From contig JABJNO010000006.1 of assembly GCA_018664825.1 (NCBI GenBank), positions 15,157-79,156 on the forward strand: 64,000 nt of DNA, given 5' to 3'. This stretch comes from Candidatus Parcubacteria bacterium (GTDB lineage: Bacteria; Patescibacteriota; Patescibacteriia; UBA1558; GWA2-36-10). Position numbers and translations under genes: made by a program. A model generated the notes under the pieces. That model made no database searches. It was not told where the DNA came from and saw only the letters and a list, made by a program, of their open reading frames with translations. Of this stretch, positions 31,321 to 60,853 are shown piece after piece (within the stretch, counting starts at the first letter, position 1; each line of letters begins with the position of its first letter).

Positions 31321-31352
31321 AAAAAGACCTCCCTTTGGAGGTCTTTTTTATT
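31321..31352 (+). terminator. Bidirectional intrinsic terminator between ahpC and the paralog array
   Basis: aaaaagacctccctttggaggtctttttta. A 9-bp stem flanked by A and T runs. Confidence 0.7.
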
Positions 31353-31944
31353 ATTCATATAATATTTTGTCTTTCAAGCCTCCTAGTCTTTTTATTCTAA
31401 AAGCTTCTTCCACCAAAGATGCATCTACATAAATATGACCATGCACAACCAAATCATCGGGCAACTCTTTTATCTTTGTTTTTTTCATATACAACACCCC
31501 TCCTACTTCCAGGCCTTTTGGCAGTTTTGTAATACCGTCATTGTCCAAGTATAGATCTCCTGTTGTAGTCAGATTGTCTGGTATTCTCGAATCAATATCT
31601 TCTGTATCTTTTAAATTTAAAAATCCCTGGACAGCTATTATTTTTATTTCTTCTCCATTTTTTATTCTAGTTTCAACTTTTACTTTTTCTCTAGGCTCAA
31701 CTTCTTCACCAATCTCCTTTGATTGAGCTATGACAGCCTCAACTGTAAACTTGTAGCCATTGATAACTCCTACTTCTTTTTTTAAAAAATCTAAACTTGG
31801 CTCCAACTGATGTTTTTTTAGTGACCTCAACAATCTAAAATCACAATCTTTTGAATCTGCCAAAAAATTGTTATCAAAATTTTGCTTACTTTCTTTGAGC
31901 TGAACAATTTCTCTTCTCAGGTTTTCACAATCTATTGCTTGCAT
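31351..31944 (-). CDS. LRR-like repeat protein, member 1 of a five-gene tandem paralog array (cytoplasmic, no signal peptide)
   Basis: C-terminal triple about-21-aa repeat IPDNLTTTGDLYL / ITKLPKGLEVGGVLYM / IKELPDDLVVHGHIYV. N-terminus MQAIDCENLR. DNA segments are shared with its neighbours. Confidence 0.55.
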   Translation of the reverse strand: MQAIDCENLRREIVQLKESKQNFDNNFLADSKDCDFRLLRSLKKHQLEPSLDFLKKEVGVINGYKFTVEAVIAQSKEIGEEVEPREKVKVETRIKNGEEIKIIAVQGFLNLKDTEDIDSRIPDNLTTTGDLYLDNDGITKLPKGLEVGGVLYMKKTKIKELPDDLVVHGHIYVDASLVEEAFRIKRLGGLKDKILYE

Positions 31945-31953
31945 AATTTTATC

Positions 31954-32529
31954 TTAATCTTCAAGGCCTACGTGTACTGAACCATATATGCCATTTATTC
32001 TAGTCACCTCATCCGTCAAAATGGGATCAATATAAATATCTCCATGTACTATCAAATCATCTGGTAGTTTTTTTATCTTGGTACGGTTGATATGCAGATT
32101 ACCTCCCACTACCAGTCCTCTTGGTAATTTTGTAATCTTTGTACCCTTAAAATTTAAATATTCTTTCACTTCTAAATTGTTGGGTATTTTTGAGTCTATA
32201 TCATTCATCATATCTAAGACTAATCCAATTTTTATGACAGTAATCTTTATACTAGCACCATCTCTATTTCTATACTTAAAATCTAATGACTTTTCTATAT
32301 CTCCTGGATTAAGCCTCATATCAATGGCCTCAATTGCAAACCTATACCCTTTAATAGCTTCCACTTCTGACCTCAAAGATTCTAAACGTTTTTCTAGGCT
32401 AGTTTTCCATAATCTGAGATCAACAAAATCCCACTTCTCTGAAGTGCCTCTACACCTTTCATCAAAACCATCTTTGTCCTCTTTGGTACGATGTATAAAT
32501 TTCCTCGTTTTTTCACAATCTATTGGCAT
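31954..32529 (-). CDS. LRR-like repeat protein, array member 2
   Basis: MPIDCEKTRK ... KEDKDGFD ... WDFVDLRLW ... KGYRF; C-terminus ITKLPRGLVVGGNLHINRTKIKKLPDDLIVHGDIYID. Confidence 0.55.
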   Translation of the reverse strand: MPIDCEKTRKFIHRTKEDKDGFDERCRGTSEKWDFVDLRLWKTSLEKRLESLRSEVEAIKGYRFAIEAIDMRLNPGDIEKSLDFKYRNRDGASIKITVIKIGLVLDMMNDIDSKIPNNLEVKEYLNFKGTKITKLPRGLVVGGNLHINRTKIKKLPDDLIVHGDIYIDPILTDEVTRINGIYGSVHVGLED

Positions 32530-32537
32530 GTTTTTAT

Positions 32538-33128
32538 TTATCCCATTAAATGTATATCTCCTCGTAAATTTCCTGCTTTACGTAATCGAACTACCTCGTC
32601 TCTCAAACTTTCGTCAAGATAAATATCTCCGTGAACCATCAAATCGTCTGGTAATTTTTTTATTTTGCTGTTATTGATATGCAGATTACCTCCCACTACC
32701 AAGCCTTTTGGTAATTCCGTAATATCTGAACCTTGTAAAAATATATTTTCCATCACAGTCATGTTTTCCGGTATTTTTCCATCCAAATTTTCTACTCTCT
32801 TTAAATTCAAAATATCTTTTACTACTATTGTTCTAATCTTTTCTCCACCCCTTAGCCCGCCCTCTACAAGTACTTTTTTTCTTGCTCCCTCAAAATCCTT
32901 GGGCTCACCTACACTAGCCATGACTACACTCACTATAAATTTATAACCTTTAACAAATTTTAACTCTCCCCTTAAAAAATCCAAACGCTGGCCCAGGGCA
33001 ATCCTCCATTGCCTCAAAGCAACGAAATCCCAATCGGCCACTTCACCAATACAAGATTTATCAAACCATCTTTTATCTTCCTTGGCGTGCTCTATGGTTA
33101 TTCTTATTTTTTCACAATCTATTATCAT
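32538..33128 (-). CDS. LRR-like repeat protein, array member 3
   Basis: MIIDCEKIRI ... KEDKRWFD ... WDFVALRQW ... KGYKF; C-terminus ITELPKGLVVGGNLHINNSKIKKLPDDLMVHGDIYLD. Identical 29-nt DNA stretch shared with member 2 (attgatatgcagattacctcccactacca). Confidence 0.55.
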   Translation of the reverse strand: MIIDCEKIRITIEHAKEDKRWFDKSCIGEVADWDFVALRQWRIALGQRLDFLRGELKFVKGYKFIVSVVMASVGEPKDFEGARKKVLVEGGLRGGEKIRTIVVKDILNLKRVENLDGKIPENMTVMENIFLQGSDITELPKGLVVGGNLHINNSKIKKLPDDLMVHGDIYLDESLRDEVVRLRKAGNLRGDIHLMG

Positions 33129-33130
33129 AT

Positions 33131-33721
33131 TTATGCTGCTACAAAGAGACTACGTATATTACCCTTTTTCTTTAGCTTGGTTATTTTATCTCCCAATAAA
33201 GGTAGTTGTTTTTGATTAATAACCAACTCTCCCTCAACTACAAGATCATCTGGAATATCCGTAATAAGAGTACCCCTAATATCCATATTACCACTTACTA
33301 GTAGATCACGAGGTATTTCTCTTACATTAAGATCTTTGATAAAAAAATTTCCATCTATTGTCCAGTCACCCGGAATCCTTACTGTCTTTTCACCAAATAT
33401 ATCTTTTCCGTTTTCTGTAAAATCCAAACCTCCTTTGTAGAGCATTCTTCCGTGTCTTTTAAATTCCATGAACTCTACCATAGATAAGAGATCTTCTCTA
33501 TCAGAACTTCTGATAAATTCCATCATATCAACCCCAATTACTTCTCCTTTGAGTTTTTCCAATGCTTCACTTATATTTATTTTTTTTTCTCTCAACTTGC
33601 CAAGATCCAAAGAATCATCGATAGCATCAAATTGATCCACAAAACCAGCAAAGGCTGGCTTTGTTACCTTTAGTAAATATCTCCATTGTTCACATTCTAC
33701 TTTGTTTTTATTTTTAAACAT
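33131..33721 (-). CDS. LRR-like repeat protein, array member 4 (divergent N-terminus)
   Basis: C-terminus IPGDWTIDGNFFIKDLNVREIPRDLLVSGNMDIRGTLITDIPDDLVVEGELVIN retains the repeat. Confidence 0.5.
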   Translation of the reverse strand: MFKNKNKVECEQWRYLLKVTKPAFAGFVDQFDAIDDSLDLGKLREKKINISEALEKLKGEVIGVDMMEFIRSSDREDLLSMVEFMEFKRHGRMLYKGGLDFTENGKDIFGEKTVRIPGDWTIDGNFFIKDLNVREIPRDLLVSGNMDIRGTLITDIPDDLVVEGELVINQKQLPLLGDKITKLKKKGNIRSLFVAA

Positions 33722-33725
33722 ACTT

Positions 33726-34319
33726 TTAATACAACATGCTTAATTTGCCACCTATCTGACCTTTGTCTTTTAATCTTTGCATCAGCTCTCTACGAGGATC
33801 ATTGGGATCAGAAAAAGTCAGATAACAATCTCCCTTGATGATAATATCTTCTGGAATATAATATCTATCGTCTTTATCAAATGAAAAATTACCATTCACT
33901 ACTAAACCTTTTGGTAAAAAACTAATATCTGTATTATTAATATTAAAATCCCCCTCAACAACCAAATTCTTTGGTAAAAATTTGATTGGCCTTCTAGATA
34001 AATCCAAATCTTCTTGATATATTATCTTTCTTTTTTCAAAACTAATTCCAAATCGTGGTAAAAAATATTTTCTATCATCTTCCGAACCTACCATGGCTAC
34101 CAATCTCCGTATTTGCTTTTGAGCAGGAACCATAAAAAGGGTTTCTTCAATATTTTTTTTCAACAAGCCAAAAGAATAGGTAGTATTTCCAATAGTAGCA
34201 AAATTTCTTGTTTTTATTGCATCTGGATATTGATCAGCAAAGTCAACTACAAAGCCCTTCATAGCTCCTAGGTCTCTCCTCAGTTCTTCACAATATTTTT
34301 TTGGTGTTTCTTGGCTCAT
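33726..34319 (-). CDS. LRR-like repeat protein, array member 5 (divergent N-terminus), first gene of the array
   Basis: C-terminus IKFLPKNLVVEGDFNINNTDISFLPKGLVVNGNFSFDKDDRYYIPEDIIIKGDCYL. Confidence 0.5.
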   Translation of the reverse strand: MSQETPKKYCEELRRDLGAMKGFVVDFADQYPDAIKTRNFATIGNTTYSFGLLKKNIEETLFMVPAQKQIRRLVAMVGSEDDRKYFLPRFGISFEKRKIIYQEDLDLSRRPIKFLPKNLVVEGDFNINNTDISFLPKGLVVNGNFSFDKDDRYYIPEDIIIKGDCYLTFSDPNDPRRELMQRLKDKGQIGGKLSMLY

Positions 34320-37842: not shown

Positions 37843-37876
37843 ACTAAAAACACCCCAAAGTGGGGTGTTTTTTATT
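37843..37876 (+). terminator. Intrinsic terminator (acaccccaaagtggggtgt + T-run)
   Basis: 8-bp GC-rich stem, then tttttattttat. Confidence 0.65.
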
Positions 37877-38098
37877 TTATCGTTTATTGAGTGGATTTTC
37901 TATCTCTTCTTCTGGTTTTTTATCCTTTTTCTCATTTTCCAAAGGCAAAGTGGGATATACTTCTTTGTCCAGTCCTCCAATATACAAAACAGGATCTACT
38001 AGCTCTACTTTTTCGGTAGACTTAGCAGTTCTTGGGCCATGAGGACCTTTTTTGAAGAATGGTTTTTTCTTTTTTTTGAAAAATTTTGCCATGACCAT
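37877..38098 (-). CDS. Small Lys-rich hypothetical protein
   Basis: 73-aa ORF rich in KKKK. Weak evidence; it could be non-coding. Confidence 0.25.
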   Translation of the reverse strand: MVMAKFFKKKKKPFFKKGPHGPRTAKSTEKVELVDPVLYIGGLDKEVYPTLPLENEKKDKKPEEEIENPLNKR

Positions 38099-38208
38099 AT
38101 AGTATCAGAGTCTAAAAAAGCTGTCCAGAGCCCAAAATTGGACTTTTCTTTATCGTTGCATTATAATGAAATGACTCAAAAACAAACACAAAAATCGAAA
38201 ATTTAGCC

Positions 38209-38256
38209 AAACTACATCTTGTGTGCTATAATGATTTCAGACACTACATGTAGTGG
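38209..38256 (+). promoter_or_regulatory. nrdJ promoter (extended -10 TGCTATAAT at about 38224-38232) with two NrdR-box-like palindromes (38209-38224 and 38241-38256)
   Basis: Box 1 ACACTACATGTAGTGg is a near-perfect 14-bp palindrome. Box 2 aAACTACATCTTGTGT matches 12 of 16 positions. Box starts are 32 bp apart, bracketing the -10. The NrdR consensus is acaCwAtATaTwGtgt. Confidence 0.5.
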
Positions 38257-38323
38257 TTTAGTCCTAAATTTTGTACCGTGTTTCTTTTTTTGACCTAAAT
38301 TATTAAGCATAAAAACAAAACTC

Positions 38324-41260
38324 ATGCCTATCAATAAAGTCCAAAAACGTGGTGGACAAATCGAAAACTTTGATTTGGAAAAGCTAATCGCCTCATTCAA
38401 GCAGATACTAAAGAGTATAAACGCAAAAGACAATCCTGTTTCAGGAAAATTAGCCAAACAAACCATTGAATATATAGAAAACAACTACGACGGCGGAGAA
38501 TTTGTCACTACTGACGATATCCGTAGCGCCGTAAATATCGTTTTGTTGGAAAACGATATGCCAAAAGCTTCTATGGTCTACTTTAAGACTAGAGGCAAAA
38601 AAATACAGACTCAACAAACTATTTTCCCCGGCCTCACAAAGGTCCAAAAGCGCGACGGTACTGTCGTTGATTTTGATACTCACCGTATTTACAATGCTGT
38701 CTTAAAAGCTGGAGAAGCAAGTGGTGAACTCGACGAAGAACAAACAAAAATACTAGCCGACACAGCTATCTCCATCCTCGAGCACAAATATGACGAACAC
38801 AATATCCCGACAGTTGAAAATGTCCAAGATATTATCGAAATTTTGCTCATCCAAGGCAATTGGGCCAAAACCGCCAAGCACTTTATCCTCTACCGAGAAC
38901 AACGCAAAAAAATCAGACTAGAAAGAGGTAAACCAATCACTAGTGCTGAGGTCAAAAAACTAGAAGAACTAAGCATACCTCTTAGTAAACAAGCCAAACA
39001 TATATTAAACAATTCTACCAACTTTGATGAGCTTGGCAGAATCATATTTTTGGACAGATATAGCATCAAAGACAAAAGAGGTGATGTAGAAGAAGGTGAT
39101 CTAGTAATAGTAGTCACCAAAGAAGACAGAAAATATCCAAAAAAAGATCTTGGTATCATCAAAAAACTTCACGACAATGATAAGGCTACTCTACATATAC
39201 TGACTGGTGTCTACGCAGACGAAGCAAACAACTACGAATTCAAACAAGCTTTGACCAAGATAGACAAACCCCGTGAATCAATCGAAGATGCTCATCGTCG
39301 TATCGCCAAAGCAGTAGCTAGTGTCGAAGCTGATGAAAACCGTGAAAAATACTTTGAACTATTTTTTGAACAACTTCGTAAAAAACATATTCAACCTGGT
39401 GGACGTATCATGACCGGTGCCAATGTAGACAATCATGGCAACTATACTTCAAATTTGACTTTGTTTAACTGCTATGTCCTACCTAGTCCTCTAGATAGCA
39501 GGCAAGCCATAGTAAAAGACACCCTCCATCAAATGGTAGAGGTGATGTCTCGTGGTGGTGGAGTTGGAATGTCTCTTTCTGCTCTAAGGCCTCGATATGC
39601 CTATGTAAAAGGCGTACACGGCAAATCCTCTGGCTCTGTGTCATGGGCTGGGCTATTTTCCTATGCTACAGGCCTAATAGAGCAAGGCGGCTCACGTAGG
39701 GGCGCTCTGATGCTAATGCAATGGGACTGGCATCCAGATGTACTAGAGTTTATCTCTTCAAAATCAGTAGCCGGGCAAATAGAAAACGCCAATATTTCTG
39801 TGATGATTTCTGATGATTTTATGGAAGCTGTCAAAAATGACGGTGATTGGAACCTAGAATTCCCTGATTATGAAAATCCAGCTTACAAAGATATATATGA
39901 CAACACTTGGACTGGTGACTTGCATGCTTGGAAAGAAGCTGGCTACCCAGTCAAAATCTACAAAACACTCAAAGCTCGTGAAATTTGGAACAAAATCACA
40001 AAAAATGCCCACAGTAGTGCTGAGCCGGGTATAGTATTTATGGAAAGATACAACAAAACTTCAAATTCATACTATTTCAACAAAGTAATAGCTACCAACC
40101 CCTGTGGTGAACAAGGTTTGCCTGGTTGGGGAGTTTGCAACCTAGGGCATATATACTTGGCTTCATTTGCCAAAGAAGTAGACAACGACGATATCGGACC
40201 TATATATGAGATGGACTGGGCAGAGCTCAAAAAATCAGCTCGTATCTTGACCCGCTTCCTAGACAACGTCATCGACCTGACTCCATATCACTTCAAAGAA
40301 AACGAAGAAAATCAAAAAAACGAAAGAAGAATCGGTGGTGGTACTCTAGGACTTGGAGAACTCCTCATCAAGATGCGTTTGAGATATGGCTCTGATCAAA
40401 GCTTGGAATTTATCGACAAGATATACAAAACAATTACTACTCAGATGTATCATGAGTCTACCGAGCTAGCCGCCGAAAAAGGACCCTTTGCCAAATTCAA
40501 TACTGACAAATTTCTAGAATCTGGCTTTATGAAAACAATGCCAGTAGAAGTCCGCGATGCTGTCCGAGAAAACGGTATCCGCAACGTCACTCTGACTACC
40601 CAAGCTCCGACTGGTACAGTAGGATCTATGCTGGGTACTAGTACAGGAGTAGAGCCTTACTATGCTTTCAAATTTTTCCGCCAAAGTCGACTTGGCTTTC
40701 ACGAAGTATTTATTCCCCTGGCCGAACAGTATAGAGTCAACGGCAATCTACCAAAATTCTTTGCCTCTGCTATGGACCTCATCCCCCTAGAACATATCAA
40801 AGTCCAAGCAGCAGTCCAAAAATGGACAGACTCCTCTATTTCCAAGACAGCCAATGCTCCAGCAGACTTTACTGTCGAGCAGACAGCAGAGCTCTACGAG
40901 CAAGCCTATGAGCTAGGATGCAAAGGTGTGACTATCTACCGTGATTCTAGTCGTACCGAACAAGTACTGACAACAGACAAAGATACAGAAAAGAAAAATC
41001 TAGCCTACAACGGCGACAGCAAAAAAGAAAAAGAAGATACACCAAAACAAGAAACATTTGCTGAACCAGCCAAAGTAGAAATCACTGAAATGCAAAATCC
41101 TCTCAAACACGCTGAAAAGATAAAAGAAGAATCCAAGAAATATGGCACCGACGTCGGCCAAGTCTGCCCTCAATGTAAAGAAGGCGTAATGGTCAAACTG
41201 GGCGGCTGTACAGAATGTAGTAAACAGTGTGGAATGAAAGGCGCTTGTGATTTAAAATAA
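38324..41260 (+). CDS. nrdJ: Class II (adenosylcobalamin-dependent) ribonucleotide reductase with two N-terminal ATP-cone domains and a C-terminal zinc ribbon
   Basis: ATP cones KVQKRGGQIENFDLEKL and KVQKRDGTVVDFDTHRI. Catalytic NPCGEQGLPGWGVCNLGHIYL. C-terminal CPQCKEG...CTECSKQC. 978 aa. Confidence 0.85.
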   Translation: MPINKVQKRGGQIENFDLEKLIASFKQILKSINAKDNPVSGKLAKQTIEYIENNYDGGEFVTTDDIRSAVNIVLLENDMPKASMVYFKTRGKKIQTQQTIFPGLTKVQKRDGTVVDFDTHRIYNAVLKAGEASGELDEEQTKILADTAISILEHKYDEHNIPTVENVQDIIEILLIQGNWAKTAKHFILYREQRKKIRLERGKPITSAEVKKLEELSIPLSKQAKHILNNSTNFDELGRIIFLDRYSIKDKRGDVEEGDLVIVVTKEDRKYPKKDLGIIKKLHDNDKATLHILTGVYADEANNYEFKQALTKIDKPRESIEDAHRRIAKAVASVEADENREKYFELFFEQLRKKHIQPGGRIMTGANVDNHGNYTSNLTLFNCYVLPSPLDSRQAIVKDTLHQMVEVMSRGGGVGMSLSALRPRYAYVKGVHGKSSGSVSWAGLFSYATGLIEQGGSRRGALMLMQWDWHPDVLEFISSKSVAGQIENANISVMISDDFMEAVKNDGDWNLEFPDYENPAYKDIYDNTWTGDLHAWKEAGYPVKIYKTLKAREIWNKITKNAHSSAEPGIVFMERYNKTSNSYYFNKVIATNPCGEQGLPGWGVCNLGHIYLASFAKEVDNDDIGPIYEMDWAELKKSARILTRFLDNVIDLTPYHFKENEENQKNERRIGGGTLGLGELLIKMRLRYGSDQSLEFIDKIYKTITTQMYHESTELAAEKGPFAKFNTDKFLESGFMKTMPVEVRDAVRENGIRNVTLTTQAPTGTVGSMLGTSTGVEPYYAFKFFRQSRLGFHEVFIPLAEQYRVNGNLPKFFASAMDLIPLEHIKVQAAVQKWTDSSISKTANAPADFTVEQTAELYEQAYELGCKGVTIYRDSSRTEQVLTTDKDTEKKNLAYNGDSKKEKEDTPKQETFAEPAKVEITEMQNPLKHAEKIKEESKKYGTDVGQVCPQCKEGVMVKLGGCTECSKQCGMKGACDLK

Positions 41261-48547: not shown

Positions 48548-50576
48548 AAGTCTCATTTCTATACAAGAAATTGACTCTTACAAAAAATTTATTGGCAACA
48601 AAACTCTAAATTTAAAAAAGTGTTCTGATTTTGGATTCAATGTTCCAAAATTTTTGGCTATCCCCAGTACAGTTACTAGTATTTTGTTGACCAACCCCAG
48701 TGCACGCAAAGATATCGCCAAAAAAATTGTACACACACTTCCCAGTGAAAAATACGCTATCCGCTCTAGTGGACTTTTGGAAGATAGTCAGAGTCAGTCA
48801 TTTGCTGGCCAATTTTTGACCAAAACAAATGTCAGGCCAAGTGGCCTCGAAGACGCTATCCGCCAAGTCCTAGAACATGCTGACAAATACCTAAAAGGGC
48901 AGATAGATAAATTTTCTATAATAATACAAGAATACATAAACCCTCAGATGGCAGGCGTCACTTTTACTAGAAATCCAAACGGTAGTAGAGAGATGATAAT
49001 CGAATATGGATATTGTGAGGGCGAAAAGATAGTCAGTGGAGAAATAAAGCCAAAAAAAGTTTCTTTTTATTGGTCAGAGCAAACACCAAAAAAGCTCCCA
49101 GAATCATTTGTAGATCAAAAAGTTATTGAACAGTTCAAAGATATAGAGACAAAAAACAACTGGCCACAAGATATAGAGTGGTGCTTCAAAGACGAGACTT
49201 TTTATATATTACAAAATAGGCCGATCACTACCATCTCTCCAGAAAAATATCAGGAAAGTACTTTTTTGGACAACAATTTGGCAAAGCAAAAAAAATACTA
49301 CTTTGAAAAAACTGAAATATCCGAAATAGCACCAAAACCCAACACTATTACGCTAGATATACTCAAAAAAATATACAGCCCAAAAGGTCCTGTAACCAAT
49401 ATCTACAAAAAATATAATGTAGCTTACAAAGATACTGATTTTTTAAAAATTGTTGGCAATGATCTATATGTAGACAAAGAAAAAGAAATACAAAGTCTCT
49501 TACCTGCTTATAGCTATCTACAAAACAATACTTATTCTGCCAAATTCAGAAAATATTCCAAAACTTTGATAACTCTAAAAAATCTCCTCCACCTAAACAA
49601 AATCAAAACTGATGATTATGAGTACATTTTTGATAACCTAAAAAACAAAATCGAAGAGACAACACCTGAGCTAAATATAAAAGAAATTTTGGAGAAATTT
49701 TTGACAGACTATGAGATTATTTTCCAAGCAAATCTTTTGTCTGGTATGGCTATCAAAAAACTAGAGGCTATTTTGAAAAACGAAAAAATAAATCTACCCG
49801 AAATCATAGAGAGTTCCTCTACTTTTGTTGATCTTGATAAATACAAAATAAATCTACCCCAAAACCTACAGGGAAACTCTATTGATATAGCTGACAAATC
49901 AGAATTTGCTACTAGTGTAAAAAATAGCCAAGAAAATAAAGATACAAAAGAGTGGTGGCAAAAAATATCTAGCTACAAAAAGAAAGTTTTTGAAAAAAAG
50001 ATAGAAGAAGGTATTTTTTATAACTACTTACGAGAAGTAGGCCGCTACCTAACAGTAAAAAATATCAATCTACTACGACAATCTTTACTCAATATCGCCA
50101 AACAAAATAATTTTGCCAATCCAGAAGACATATACTTTACCAATCTTGAAAATGTCTTGGAAAACAAAATAAATGAAGAAAAATGCATTGCTAATAAAAA
50201 CAATTATCTAAAATACAAAGATTTTGAGTTTCCAAGCACCCTGACTTCATCTGTGCCCAATATAAAAAACAAAATAATGGGCGTATCAGCAGGCGTGGCT
50301 ACTGGTATTTTGCAAACCGCTGATATGATCAAAAATACAGGAGACAAAAATATTATATTGTATACCAAAATGTTATCTCCTGATCTGACTACCTATTTTG
50401 ATAAAATATCTGGCATAGTCTCAAACAACGGTGGCCTACTGTCCCATCTAGCCATAGTTGCCCGTGAAAGTAACATCCCTGTGATCGTAGGTGTATCACT
50501 AAACACCACCCAGATAAAAATCGGAGACAAAATACAAATAGACGGTAGCCAAGGTAAAATTTCTAAAATAAATTAA
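48534..50576 (+). CDS. PEP-utilising enzyme family protein (PPDK_N-like ATP-grasp plus mobile phospho-His domain; PEP synthase / rifampicin-phosphotransferase-like)
   Basis: C-terminal ILYTKMLSPDLTTYFDKISGIVSNNGGLLSHLAIVARESNIPVIVGV matches the mobile domain GG..SHaAIvARE..iP.VvG. N-terminal half is an ATP-grasp-like nucleotide-binding domain. Confidence 0.55.
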   Translation: MTTDKSLISIQEIDSYKKFIGNKTLNLKKCSDFGFNVPKFLAIPSTVTSILLTNPSARKDIAKKIVHTLPSEKYAIRSSGLLEDSQSQSFAGQFLTKTNVRPSGLEDAIRQVLEHADKYLKGQIDKFSIIIQEYINPQMAGVTFTRNPNGSREMIIEYGYCEGEKIVSGEIKPKKVSFYWSEQTPKKLPESFVDQKVIEQFKDIETKNNWPQDIEWCFKDETFYILQNRPITTISPEKYQESTFLDNNLAKQKKYYFEKTEISEIAPKPNTITLDILKKIYSPKGPVTNIYKKYNVAYKDTDFLKIVGNDLYVDKEKEIQSLLPAYSYLQNNTYSAKFRKYSKTLITLKNLLHLNKIKTDDYEYIFDNLKNKIEETTPELNIKEILEKFLTDYEIIFQANLLSGMAIKKLEAILKNEKINLPEIIESSSTFVDLDKYKINLPQNLQGNSIDIADKSEFATSVKNSQENKDTKEWWQKISSYKKKVFEKKIEEGIFYNYLREVGRYLTVKNINLLRQSLLNIAKQNNFANPEDIYFTNLENVLENKINEEKCIANKNNYLKYKDFEFPSTLTSSVPNIKNKIMGVSAGVATGILQTADMIKNTGDKNIILYTKMLSPDLTTYFDKISGIVSNNGGLLSHLAIVARESNIPVIVGVSLNTTQIKIGDKIQIDGSQGKISKIN

Positions 50577-53750: not shown

Positions 53751-53993
53751 ATGTGGTTGATACGATTCAATCAATGGTACGACCAACTATCCCCCGATCC
53801 TCGTTTCATTTTATTCCTGCTCTTCATCGCCATAATCGGCATTGGGTCGATTAGCTTTGGTCTGAATCTCAATCAGCCCAAGCTAGCTCTATTTGGCACT
53901 GTCTGGATTGCCATCTTTGGTGGCCAAAGAGCGATTTACTTCCTTCTCAATCGAAGAGTTGTTCGTTCCAGAGTCCAAAAACCTAGAGGTTAA
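53751..53993 (+). CDS. Small two-TM membrane protein
   Basis: 80 aa. Followed by a terminator (ccctcg...cggggg + T-run). Confidence 0.35.
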   Translation: MWLIRFNQWYDQLSPDPRFILFLLFIAIIGIGSISFGLNLNQPKLALFGTVWIAIFGGQRAIYFLLNRRVVRSRVQKPRG

Positions 53994-54066
53994 ACCTCAC
54001 TCACCCTCGTTTTTTTAAACGGGGGTTTTATTTTACAAAAATATCTAAAAGGATTAAGATTATCTT

Positions 54067-56401: not shown

Positions 56402-56791
56402 ATGAAACAATCAAACATTTCTTTCAACGAATTAGTCAGCAAGCTAGACGACTTTGACAAAGCTAGAGACTGGATTGGCCTAGACCCTGCAGATCTAGCA
56501 AAGTCTATCGCCCTAGAGGCTTCCGAGCTTTTGGAGTTTTATCAATGGGACAACAGTCTGACTGCCAAAGGCAAAAAAATACCAAAAAAGGATAAAGAAG
56601 AAATAGGTTTTGAGGTAGCTGATATTTTGATCTATTTACTCAAATTTTGCCGAGAGACAAAGATAGATATTGTAGGCGCTACTTTCAAAAAACTAGAGCA
56701 CAACAACAAAAAATATCCCGCCAACTACAAAGACAAGGGCGGGCACGAAGAATATGAAAGAATAAAAAAATCTTATCGTAATAAAAAATAA
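56402..56791 (+). CDS. MazG-like nucleotide pyrophosphohydrolase
   Basis: DWIGLDPADLAKSIALEASELLEFYQW ... EEIGFEVADILIYLLKFCRETKIDI (EExxE/D metal-binding helix pair). Confidence 0.65.
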   Translation: MKQSNISFNELVSKLDDFDKARDWIGLDPADLAKSIALEASELLEFYQWDNSLTAKGKKIPKKDKEEIGFEVADILIYLLKFCRETKIDIVGATFKKLEHNNKKYPANYKDKGGHEEYERIKKSYRNKK

Positions 56792-56795
56792 TTTT

Positions 56796-57197
56796 ATGAA
56801 AAAAGAATACTTAGAATTAATAAAAAAAGCTTCTGCATTGGCCAAGGCCAAAAGACACAATGACTCCATAACATCGGGCTACGTTGGTTGTGCATTACTC
56901 ACTGATCAGGGCAATACCTACACTGGGGTAAGTATTGATGCTGATTGTGCTATTGGATTTTGTGGTGAACACAGTGCTATTGCTCAGATGATTACCGCCG
57001 GCGAAGATCGCATCAAAGCAATCGTAGCTGTGGCTGATGAAAAAGACATCCTGCCCCCTTGTGGTCGTTGTAGAGAACTTATTTATCAAACAAACTACGC
57101 CAACCTAGATACCGAGGTTATCCTTTCCAAGGATAAAACAATCCCCCTTGGAGAATTACTCCCTTACAATTGGCAAAATCATTCTAATAAAAAATAA
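56796..57197 (+). CDS. cdd: Cytidine deaminase
   Basis: Zinc ligands in CGEHSAIAQ (C/H-x-E) and PCGRCRELI (PCGxCRQ). Confidence 0.8.
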   Translation: MKKEYLELIKKASALAKAKRHNDSITSGYVGCALLTDQGNTYTGVSIDADCAIGFCGEHSAIAQMITAGEDRIKAIVAVADEKDILPPCGRCRELIYQTNYANLDTEVILSKDKTIPLGELLPYNWQNHSNKK

Positions 57198-59289: not shown

Positions 59290-59847
59290 ATGTCAAATAT
59301 AGAAAATAGGCACAAATTAGGTAAAATACACATCTATACTGGAGATGGTAAAGGCAAGACTACTGCAGCCCTAGGATTGGCCGTCCGAGCTCTAGGCAAT
59401 GGCCTCCGAGTTGGTATTATTTATTTTGACAAAGGTGGAGATTATTACAATGAAAGAAAAATCCTAGACAAGCTAAAGCCAGATGGTCTAGAATACAAGG
59501 CTTTTGGCCAAACAAGAATGGTAGAAAAAAAAGGTTTTCGTTTTGAAAATGTACCAGCTGACTTTGCTGATGCCGAAGATGCTATCCTAACTGCTGAAAA
59601 ATGGATGAAAAAAAGGCTTGATTTGATGATTTTGGATGAGATCAATACTACCGTCAAAACGGGCTTGCTAAAAGTTGAAAAAATTGTTAATTTACTAGGG
59701 CAGAAACCAGCTCATTTAGAACTGATTTTGACTGGCCGTTATGCTCCAGATGAAGTTTTAAAATTCGGTGACTTGATTACCGAAATGACTATGGTCAAAC
59801 ATTATATGAGTGAGGGTATTCCTGCTAGAAAAGGGATTGAATTCTAA
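59290..59847 (+). CDS. cobO: Cob(I)alamin adenosyltransferase (CobO/BtuR/CobA type)
   Basis: P-loop-like HIYTGDGKGKTTAALGLAVRALGNGLRVGIIYFDKGG, then LDE. Confidence 0.8.
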   Translation: MSNIENRHKLGKIHIYTGDGKGKTTAALGLAVRALGNGLRVGIIYFDKGGDYYNERKILDKLKPDGLEYKAFGQTRMVEKKGFRFENVPADFADAEDAILTAEKWMKKRLDLMILDEINTTVKTGLLKVEKIVNLLGQKPAHLELILTGRYAPDEVLKFGDLITEMTMVKHYMSEGIPARKGIEF

Positions 59848-59872
59848 TAATTATACTGAGCTTTATTAAAAT

Positions 59873-60304
59873 ATGAAAAAAATTATATCTTTTATCTTCT
59901 TTATTGTAGCCATTGCTATTATTGTGCTAATATTAAGAAACAATGGTCTCCCAAATATTGGTAACAACACAATCGACGAAGGACCTATAAAAAAATATAT
60001 CGGCATAGAGTTCCTATTTACTGAAGACGACAAAATTTTTGTCCAATATGAACACATTGATCCCCCTCAAGATCTATTTACTATCACTCAGGATATAGCC
60101 CTACAACAAAACTGGGAATTTGCTTCTGAGGACTATGGAGAGATGGGCATCTTGGTTGAAAAAATAAAAGACAAAGAAAACGGAGAGAGCAAAAAATACT
60201 GGCAATACTTTATGGACCTACAACAACCCCAAGTATCTGCTGAAAAGTTTTATCCTACACCAGGACAATACATACAATGGAAATTTCAAGCGTCTGAATT
60301 TTAA
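59873..60304 (+). CDS. Membrane-anchored/secreted small protein, hypothetical
   Basis: N-terminal TM/signal. 143 aa. No motif recognised. Confidence 0.4.
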   Translation: MKKIISFIFFIVAIAIIVLILRNNGLPNIGNNTIDEGPIKKYIGIEFLFTEDDKIFVQYEHIDPPQDLFTITQDIALQQNWEFASEDYGEMGILVEKIKDKENGESKKYWQYFMDLQQPQVSAEKFYPTPGQYIQWKFQASEF

Positions 60305-60328
60305 AAAATATATTTAGTTTATCAAAAT

Positions 60329-60853
60329 ATGAAAAAAACAAACCTATTACTTATAGTAGCAATTAGTCTAATACTCTTACTTGCTAGATTGATTCCACAT
60401 GTACCAAATTTTTCTCCTTTGGCTAGTGTACTACTTTTTGCTGGAGTATACGCCAAAGACAAAAGATATCTTTTGATTCCTCTAGTTGCCTTATTTGTCT
60501 CTGACTTGTTTCTTGGTTTTTATAAACTAGAAATCATGCTATCTGTTTATATCTCCTTGGCATTGATAGGATTGGTTGGCGTCATAGTCAAAAAAAACAA
60601 AAATATTTTGAACATTATTACCGGCTCTATGGGAGCAGCTATATTATTTTTCCTAGTCACTAACTTTGCTGTTTGGTATTTTGGCGCCTGGTATCCAAAT
60701 ACTCTTTCCGGATTAGCTCTGTGCTATAGTCTGGCAATTCCTTTTTTCAAAAGTACTTTAATCAGCAATTTATTTTATACAAGTGTACTGTTTGGCACTT
60801 ATGAAATGGCCTTATATTTTTACCAACAAAGAATTCTAGCCAAATCCCGTTAA
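60329..60853 (+). CDS. Small polytopic membrane protein (5-6 TM), possible transporter substrate-capture-like component
   Basis: 174 aa with six hydrophobic segments. No ATPase nearby. Function not determinable. Confidence 0.35.
   Translation: MKKTNLLLIVAISLILLLARLIPHVPNFSPLASVLLFAGVYAKDKRYLLIPLVALFVSDLFLGFYKLEIMLSVYISLALIGLVGVIVKKNKNILNIITGSMGAAILFFLVTNFAVWYFGAWYPNTLSGLALCYSLAIPFFKSTLISNLFYTSVLFGTYEMALYFYQQRILAKSR

Follow-up and report, generated by a model that had tools for sequence, protein, structure and literature searches.

Tandem NrdR-type boxes interlocked with the promoter of a class II ribonucleotide reductase gene in a Candidatus Parcubacteria genome

The stretch of DNA analyzed here, referred to as the window, comprises 64,000 nucleotides of a 254,331 bp contig from a 'Candidatus Parcubacteria bacterium' metagenome-assembled genome. 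It carries nrdJ, which encodes a class II ribonucleotide reductase (RNR; NCBI accession MBT4849398.1). The protein scores 538.5 bits against TIGR02504 (cut-off 399.95) and contains the Pfam domains Ribonuc_red_lgC and Ribonuc_red_lgN in addition to its two ATP-cones, with the RNR barrel (PF02867) matched at 3e-109. No NrdB gene is adjacent to nrdJ. The first ATP-cone (residues 1-102) has KRGG in place of the canonical KRDG and has diverged much further than the second; its nucleotide site may be degenerate. A fused NrdR was considered as the origin of this domain and rejected because the domain is nearer to the ATP-cones of RNRs than to those of NrdR. Elsewhere in the window, a gene for a cob(I)alamin adenosyltransferase (PF02572) is followed by genes for DUF4430 and DUF6580 proteins. 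These genes probably form a B12 salvage or uptake cluster, which fits dependence on an adenosylcobalamin-requiring RNR.

The intergenic region upstream of nrdJ spans 225 bp, between a 73-aa ORF on the minus strand and the 978-aa ORF of nrdJ on the plus strand. It contains two 16-bp sequences, AAACTACATCTTGTGT (box 1) and ACACTACATGTAGTGG (box 2), each of which agrees with the NrdR consensus ACACWATATATWGTGT at 13/16 positions. Each box has the conserved C4 and G13 and fits the regular expression C.[AT].A[AT].[AT].G for the core (PMC12051234). Box 2 is self-complementary at 14/16 positions. The start positions of the boxes are 32 bp apart, leaving a spacer of 16 bp, and the pair lies 67 nt upstream of the nrdJ start codon. 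As summarized in Table 1, the boxes are embedded in a predicted promoter. An independent promoter scan identified TAGCCA-17 nt-TATAAT with an upstream TG at positions 38204-38232, so that the predicted -35/-10 spacer is taken up by box 1 and the predicted start site is covered by box 2. The first T of the extended -10 element is the final base of box 1. Further upstream, between a gene encoding a 488-aa protein and the 73-aa ORF, a perfect hairpin with a 12-bp stem is flanked by A and T runs and can be read as an intrinsic terminator in either direction.

Table 1. Features of the nrdJ locus and other regions of the window. Conservation is given in bits per column over an alignment of 26 promoters.
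Feature	Position	Strand	Conservation	Remarks
Five tandem paralogous ORFs	31351-34319	-		191-197 aa
Hairpin, reads as intrinsic terminator	37846-37872			
73-aa ORF	37877-38098	-		
Intergenic region	38099-38323			
Sequence further upstream			0.19	
A-rich tract, possibly UP-element	38178-38203	+	0.62	moderate conservation; function inferred
-35-like hexamer TAGCCA	38204-38209	+		from promoter scan
NrdR box 1, distal, weaker	38209-38224	.	1.35	in -35/-10 spacer; 14.3 bits with matrix from relatives' box 2
Extended -10 TGcTATAAT	38224-38232	+	1.78 (gcTATAAT segment)	reads TGTGcTATAAT when joined to end of box 1; TG from promoter scan
Predicted transcription start	38239-38240	+		7-8 nt past -10; from standard sigma-70 geometry
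NrdR box 2, proximal, strong	38241-38256	.	1.40	about +2 to +17 relative to predicted start; 23.5 bits, top site
Perfect palindrome in box 2	38242-38255			14-mer
Rest of 5' UTR	38257-38323	+	0.28	unconserved in relatives
nrdJ	38324-41260	+		class II, adenosylcobalamin-dependent RNR, 978 aa; two N-terminal ATP-cones
First ATP-cone of NrdJ	38324-38630	+		divergent
MazG-like and cytidine/dCMP deaminase genes	56402-57197			
Cobalamin adenosyltransferase, DUF4430 and DUF6580 genes	59290-60853			

An initial annotation of this DNA had described tandem NrdR-box-like palindromes at the nrdJ promoter, and direct reading of the sequence bears this description out, with a class II RNR gene downstream. 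Its statement that a weaker box starts exactly 32 bp upstream of the stronger one holds, as does its description of the spacing as characteristic of NrdR operators: the most common spacer between NrdR boxes is 15-16 bp, and tight binding is observed at about 14-18 bp (PMC12051234). It had also placed an extended -10 element between the boxes, and the promoter scan likewise flags the upstream TG. One correction is required. The perfect 14-bp palindrome, CACTACATGTAGTG, is present, but it had been assigned to positions 38241-38255, where the 15-mer includes one extra A at its 5' end.

To place the promoter in a wider context, GTDB species genomes were scanned with NrdJ, yielding 50 loci. The NrdJ proteins are 66-77% identical to that of the window in Patescibacteria, 53-65% in DPANN archaea, and 53-55% in Bacillota. 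Promoters were aligned for the window and the 25 Patescibacteria relatives with usable upstream sequence. All 26 align without a gap and share the same order of elements: A-rich tract, TTTGgc, box 1, gcTATAAT, 8 nt, box 2. The initial annotation had made its reading depend in part on the palindrome recurring upstream of nrdJ in relatives; both boxes, at the exact 32-bp distance, are kept in 25/25 of them. Box 2 follows the pattern nCACwAnATnTwGTgn, in which eight positions are invariant and which equals the NrdR logo, while the conserved parts of box 1 are C4, A8, T9 and its right half, TTGTGT. The hexamer TATAAT is invariant in 26/26 promoters. The TTTG immediately 5' of box 1 shows little or no variation among the relatives, whose -35 element reads TTGGCA or TTGTCC and is shifted one base to the left.

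A comparable pair of boxes is present in most of the seven Bacillota relatives. In the nrdJ promoters of Tepidibacillus and Paenibacillus (L043-L052), box 1 is followed by 2 nt, TATAAT, about 8 nt and box 2, and the box starts are 31-33 bp apart, as in the layout of the window. The Bacillota enzymes differ in that the tblastn alignment begins only at about residue 210-237 of the protein from the window, without the N-terminal ATP-cone region. Tandem boxes also lie upstream of RNR operons in DPANN archaea, with the arrangement nrdR-nrdJ or nrdR-nrdD (L024, L026, L027, L042, L049, L054, L059). Unlike in the window, nrdR is adjacent and co-oriented in these operons, and the boxes are located downstream of archaeal TATA-like boxes, outside any -35/-10 promoter. 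When L056 is included, eight such loci of Woesearchaeota and Nanobdellota carry nrdR-nrdJ, nrdR-nrdD or nrdR-dcd-nrdJ operons; the boxes are 30-33 bp apart in most of them, L056 being an exception. Identity between the DPANN NrdJ proteins and the Patescibacteria enzyme reaches 64%, suggesting transfer between these two ultra-small groups. In addition, box 1 is interlocked with TGTGcTATAAT in the promoter of a Hydrogenedentes-like nrdR-nrdD operon (L060:715-775; TTGACT-ccctatatgttgtgtgcTATAAT), so this layout is not confined to Patescibacteria.

These comparisons bear on whether both boxes serve NrdR. Box 2 could work as an NrdR site by itself, with 'box 1' conserved as a promoter spacer and a TGTG-type extended -10 element. 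The left half of box 1 is variable, its invariant part (T-TTGTGT) abuts gcTATAAT, and in several relatives the box scores only 10-11/16. Because the TTGTGT half overlaps TGTG-N-TATAAT, part of the conservation of box 1 could reflect promoter function. We nevertheless regard this reading as unlikely. C4 of box 1 is found in at least 90% of the promoters, A8 and T9 are nearly invariant or invariant, and none of these three positions has a known role in promoters. The 32-bp distance between box starts is the same in 26/26 promoters, and this register recurs in operators of Bacillota and DPANN archaea that have different promoter elements. Furthermore, published work shows that the NrdR tetramer binds pairs of boxes, located about three helical turns apart and overlapping the start site, and that inverting the conserved C4/G13 pair in each box reduces binding in Streptomyces by about 50-60-fold (PMC9110341).

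Among characterized systems, the nrdRJ operator of Streptomyces coelicolor (PMC9110341) is closely comparable. It likewise consists of two 16-bp palindromic boxes with the C/G pairs, about three helical turns apart, which overlap promoter and transcription start at a class II RNR gene, the start being a predicted one in the window. The expected effector logic is also the same, with dATP and ATP together yielding a DNA-binding tetramer. There are two differences. In S. coelicolor, nrdR heads the regulated operon, whereas nrdJ stands alone in the window and nrdR would have to be elsewhere; and the operator described here lies in AT-rich DNA, with box 1 abutting an extended -10 element. The nrd sites of Listeria monocytogenes and Escherichia coli (PMC12051234, PMC12176259) belong to the same 16-bp spacer class and share the box consensus, but their targets are RNR operons of classes I and III. 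Spacers of 25-26 bp, as used by Streptococcus (PMC12051234, PMC12176259), are not observed in the window. No paper linking NrdR with the Candidate Phyla Radiation, in its main text or supplements, was found in the literature searched; published GTDB-wide scans for NrdR boxes probably already include such genomes.

A search of the 64-kb window for the regulator gene, using a regular expression for the cysteine motif, E. coli NrdR as a phmmer query, and a profile HMM trained on E. coli NrdR and 120 other NrdR sequences, detected no nrdR. An 11.9-bit match at positions 53887-54015 was rejected as a chance match because the fragment, of 41-43 aa, has no cysteines. No nrdR was present in the gene lists flanking the window, which cover 10 kb before its start and about 5 kb past its end up to the last called gene. 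Likewise, nrdR was not found within 10 kb of nrdJ in any of the Patescibacteria relatives, and none of the best 120 Patescibacteria NrdR matches lies on the nrdJ contig of a relative.

When DPANN or Hydrogenedentes-like NrdR served as the query, only proteins of archaea and of other bacterial clades were recovered. The NrdR proteins of Patescibacteria were reached by another route, starting from a divergent NrdR on an IMG/VR contig (L066) and proceeding through a metagenome scan and cluster names. This revealed a distinct NrdR clade with the motif 'RFST', the cluster names of which include Candidatus Komeilibacteria (OGY89452.1), Uhrbacteria, and the Moraniibacteriota or Parcubacteria group. 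When the Komeilibacteria protein was used as a query, all named sequences among its best 120 matches were from Patescibacteria (Komeilibacteria, 'Patescibacteria group', Kerfeldbacteria, Uhrbacteria), the rest being unclassified metagenome-assembled genomes labelled 'bacterium'. All 120 of these relatives' proteins contain PF22811 and PF03477. The zinc-ribbon residues C3, C6, C31 and C34 show little or no variation; 119/120 sequences have D15-S16-R17, and 120/120 have R27-29 and R37. In the cryo-EM complex (PMC9110341), the box is read by D15 and R17, which determine specificity; given their conservation, the same DNA specificity is expected of the Patescibacteria proteins. The clade also has S39 in 120/120 sequences, giving RFST where other NrdRs have RFTT, and its first zinc knuckle is usually CPVC. 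Separately, eleven IMG/VR viral contigs (L072-L082) match only the NrdR zinc ribbon, from the first residue to about residue 42-49, and their proteins show no detectable match to the ATP-cone; these may be phage mimics or competitors of NrdR.

In five Komeilibacteria-like assemblies, the gene order is ybeY-ftsA-ftsZ-nrdR, with nrdR at about position 5001 in L163, 1279 in L169, and 3001 in L175, L178 and L180. The gap between ftsZ and the start of nrdR is 6-90 bp and nrdR is not preceded by an NrdR box, which suggests that it is co-transcribed with the cell-division genes. Beyond nrdR lie one or two small ORFs of unknown function, htrA or glnA, and prfA, with cysS where the locus extends far enough. 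None of the usual neighbors ftsZ, ftsA, ybeY, prfA and glnA is found in the window or in the loci of the relatives. As nrdR normally adjoins ftsZ in this phylum and the window does not include ftsZ, one would not expect to find nrdR there. A Moraniibacteriota nrdR-nrdD operon (L153) has a strong, 20-bit box at its own TGgTATAAT promoter. This shows box and regulator together within the phylum, in an nrdD operon outside the nrdJ-bearing lineage.

These results also allow an assessment of whether the Parcubacteria lineage lost nrdR during genome reduction, leaving the conserved boxes to be read by a replacement DNA-binding protein. About 79 kb of the source genome were inspected without encountering nrdR, and its absence from the vicinity of nrdJ extends to all relatives. 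If this explanation were true, the locus would present a conserved operator that has outlived its repressor. However, the site is indistinguishable from an NrdR site in sequence, symmetry and spacing, NrdR with conserved DNA-reading residues is widespread in Patescibacteria, including Komeilibacteria, and the normal place of its gene in the phylum is beside ftsZ rather than nrdJ. We therefore consider the loss of nrdR very unlikely.

It is highly improbable that the box 2 palindrome works instead at the RNA level, as a 5'-terminal hairpin of the nrdJ mRNA with an effect on its stability or translation. Box 2 is indeed located where the transcript is predicted to begin, and a 5-bp stem is possible in the source genome. 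However, the variable pair of the palindrome, W5/W12, is unpaired in 13/26 sequences and its covariation score is below that of most shuffles. The lack of covariation, together with half-sites that each keep their own consensus independently, points to the site of a dimeric protein. A hairpin would also leave box 1 and the fixed 32-bp register unexplained, and folding of the 5' UTR is no more stable than that of shuffled sequence (z = 0.12). A riboswitch or otherwise structured 5' UTR was rejected on the same absence of excess folding energy and because the 5' UTR has no match to a regulatory RNA in Rfam.

The probability that both boxes are chance palindromes in AT-rich intergenic DNA is negligible: the loose 10-nt core expression yields about 4.8 pairs per 64 kb by chance, but pairs of full 16-mers arose in 0/400 simulations and the conservation of the arrangement in 26/26 orthologous promoters refutes this reading. 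The simulations used a third-order Markov model of 64 kb and gave a mean of 2.1 sites of at least 13/16; the window, with a G+C content of 37%, has four such sites and one pair at 30-33 bp. As the 10-nt core does not discriminate in AT-rich DNA, it was rejected as evidence, and the significance of the site rests on the full 16-mers and their conservation.

On this basis, the two boxes are with high likelihood a canonical tandem NrdR operator, situated in a sigma-70-type nrdJ promoter and predicted to be bound by an NrdR tetramer carrying dATP and ATP. Since NrdR is abundant in the phylum, including Komeilibacteria, we infer on good grounds that NrdR represses nrdJ. The gene for the regulator, a protein with a zinc ribbon at its N-terminus and an ATP-cone at its C-terminus, would lie elsewhere in the genome; in related Patescibacteria, this gene is typically found directly 3' of ftsZ. 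By analogy with characterized NrdR proteins (PMC9110341, PMC12051234), a rise in dATP relative to ATP would generate tetramers loaded with dATP and ATP. The two zinc-ribbon pairs of a tetramer would then occupy box 1 and box 2, three helical turns apart. Because box 1 lies in the -35/-10 spacer and box 2 over the predicted start, the sharply bent complex would exclude RNA polymerase and switch nrdJ off. NrdR loaded with ATP only would form oligomers unable to bind DNA, allowing nrdJ to be transcribed. Through the ATP-cones on NrdJ and the NrdR operator, the supply of dNTPs would be subject to both allosteric and transcriptional feedback.

The nrdJ operator is an unexceptional instance of a control circuit well known in bacteria and leaves the known working of NrdR unchanged. 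Its interest lies in the organisms concerned: dATP-sensing transcriptional control of dNTP synthesis has very probably been kept in the ultra-small Patescibacteria, the regulatory repertoire of which is otherwise small. Operator and core promoter interlock tightly there, and the operator is fixed in all 26 promoters that were compared. This enables a confident regulatory annotation of nrdJ in the Parcubacteria lineage.

Further NrdR sites in the window were sought with a symmetric weight matrix derived solely from the box 2 sequences of the relatives and scanned over 64,000 positions. Box 2 ranked first and box 1 second, and no second tandem pair was detected in the 64-kb window. In 476 kb of DNA flanking nrdJ in Patescibacteria, the only tandem pairs are those of the nrdJ promoters. 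The initial annotation had proposed looking for the same box in front of other genes of nucleotide metabolism; within the 64-kb window, none was found upstream of the genes for dCMP deaminase, the MazG-like protein, Maf or cobalamin adenosyltransferase, the first two of which are listed together in Table 1 as nucleotide-metabolism genes. Single sites at positions 49164, 46814 and 28332 were rejected as further NrdR sites, as all are unpaired and inside ORFs. The five paralogous ORFs listed in Table 1 have no Pfam match, and their products share repeated LPxxLxVxGxL-type motifs in the C-terminal parts.
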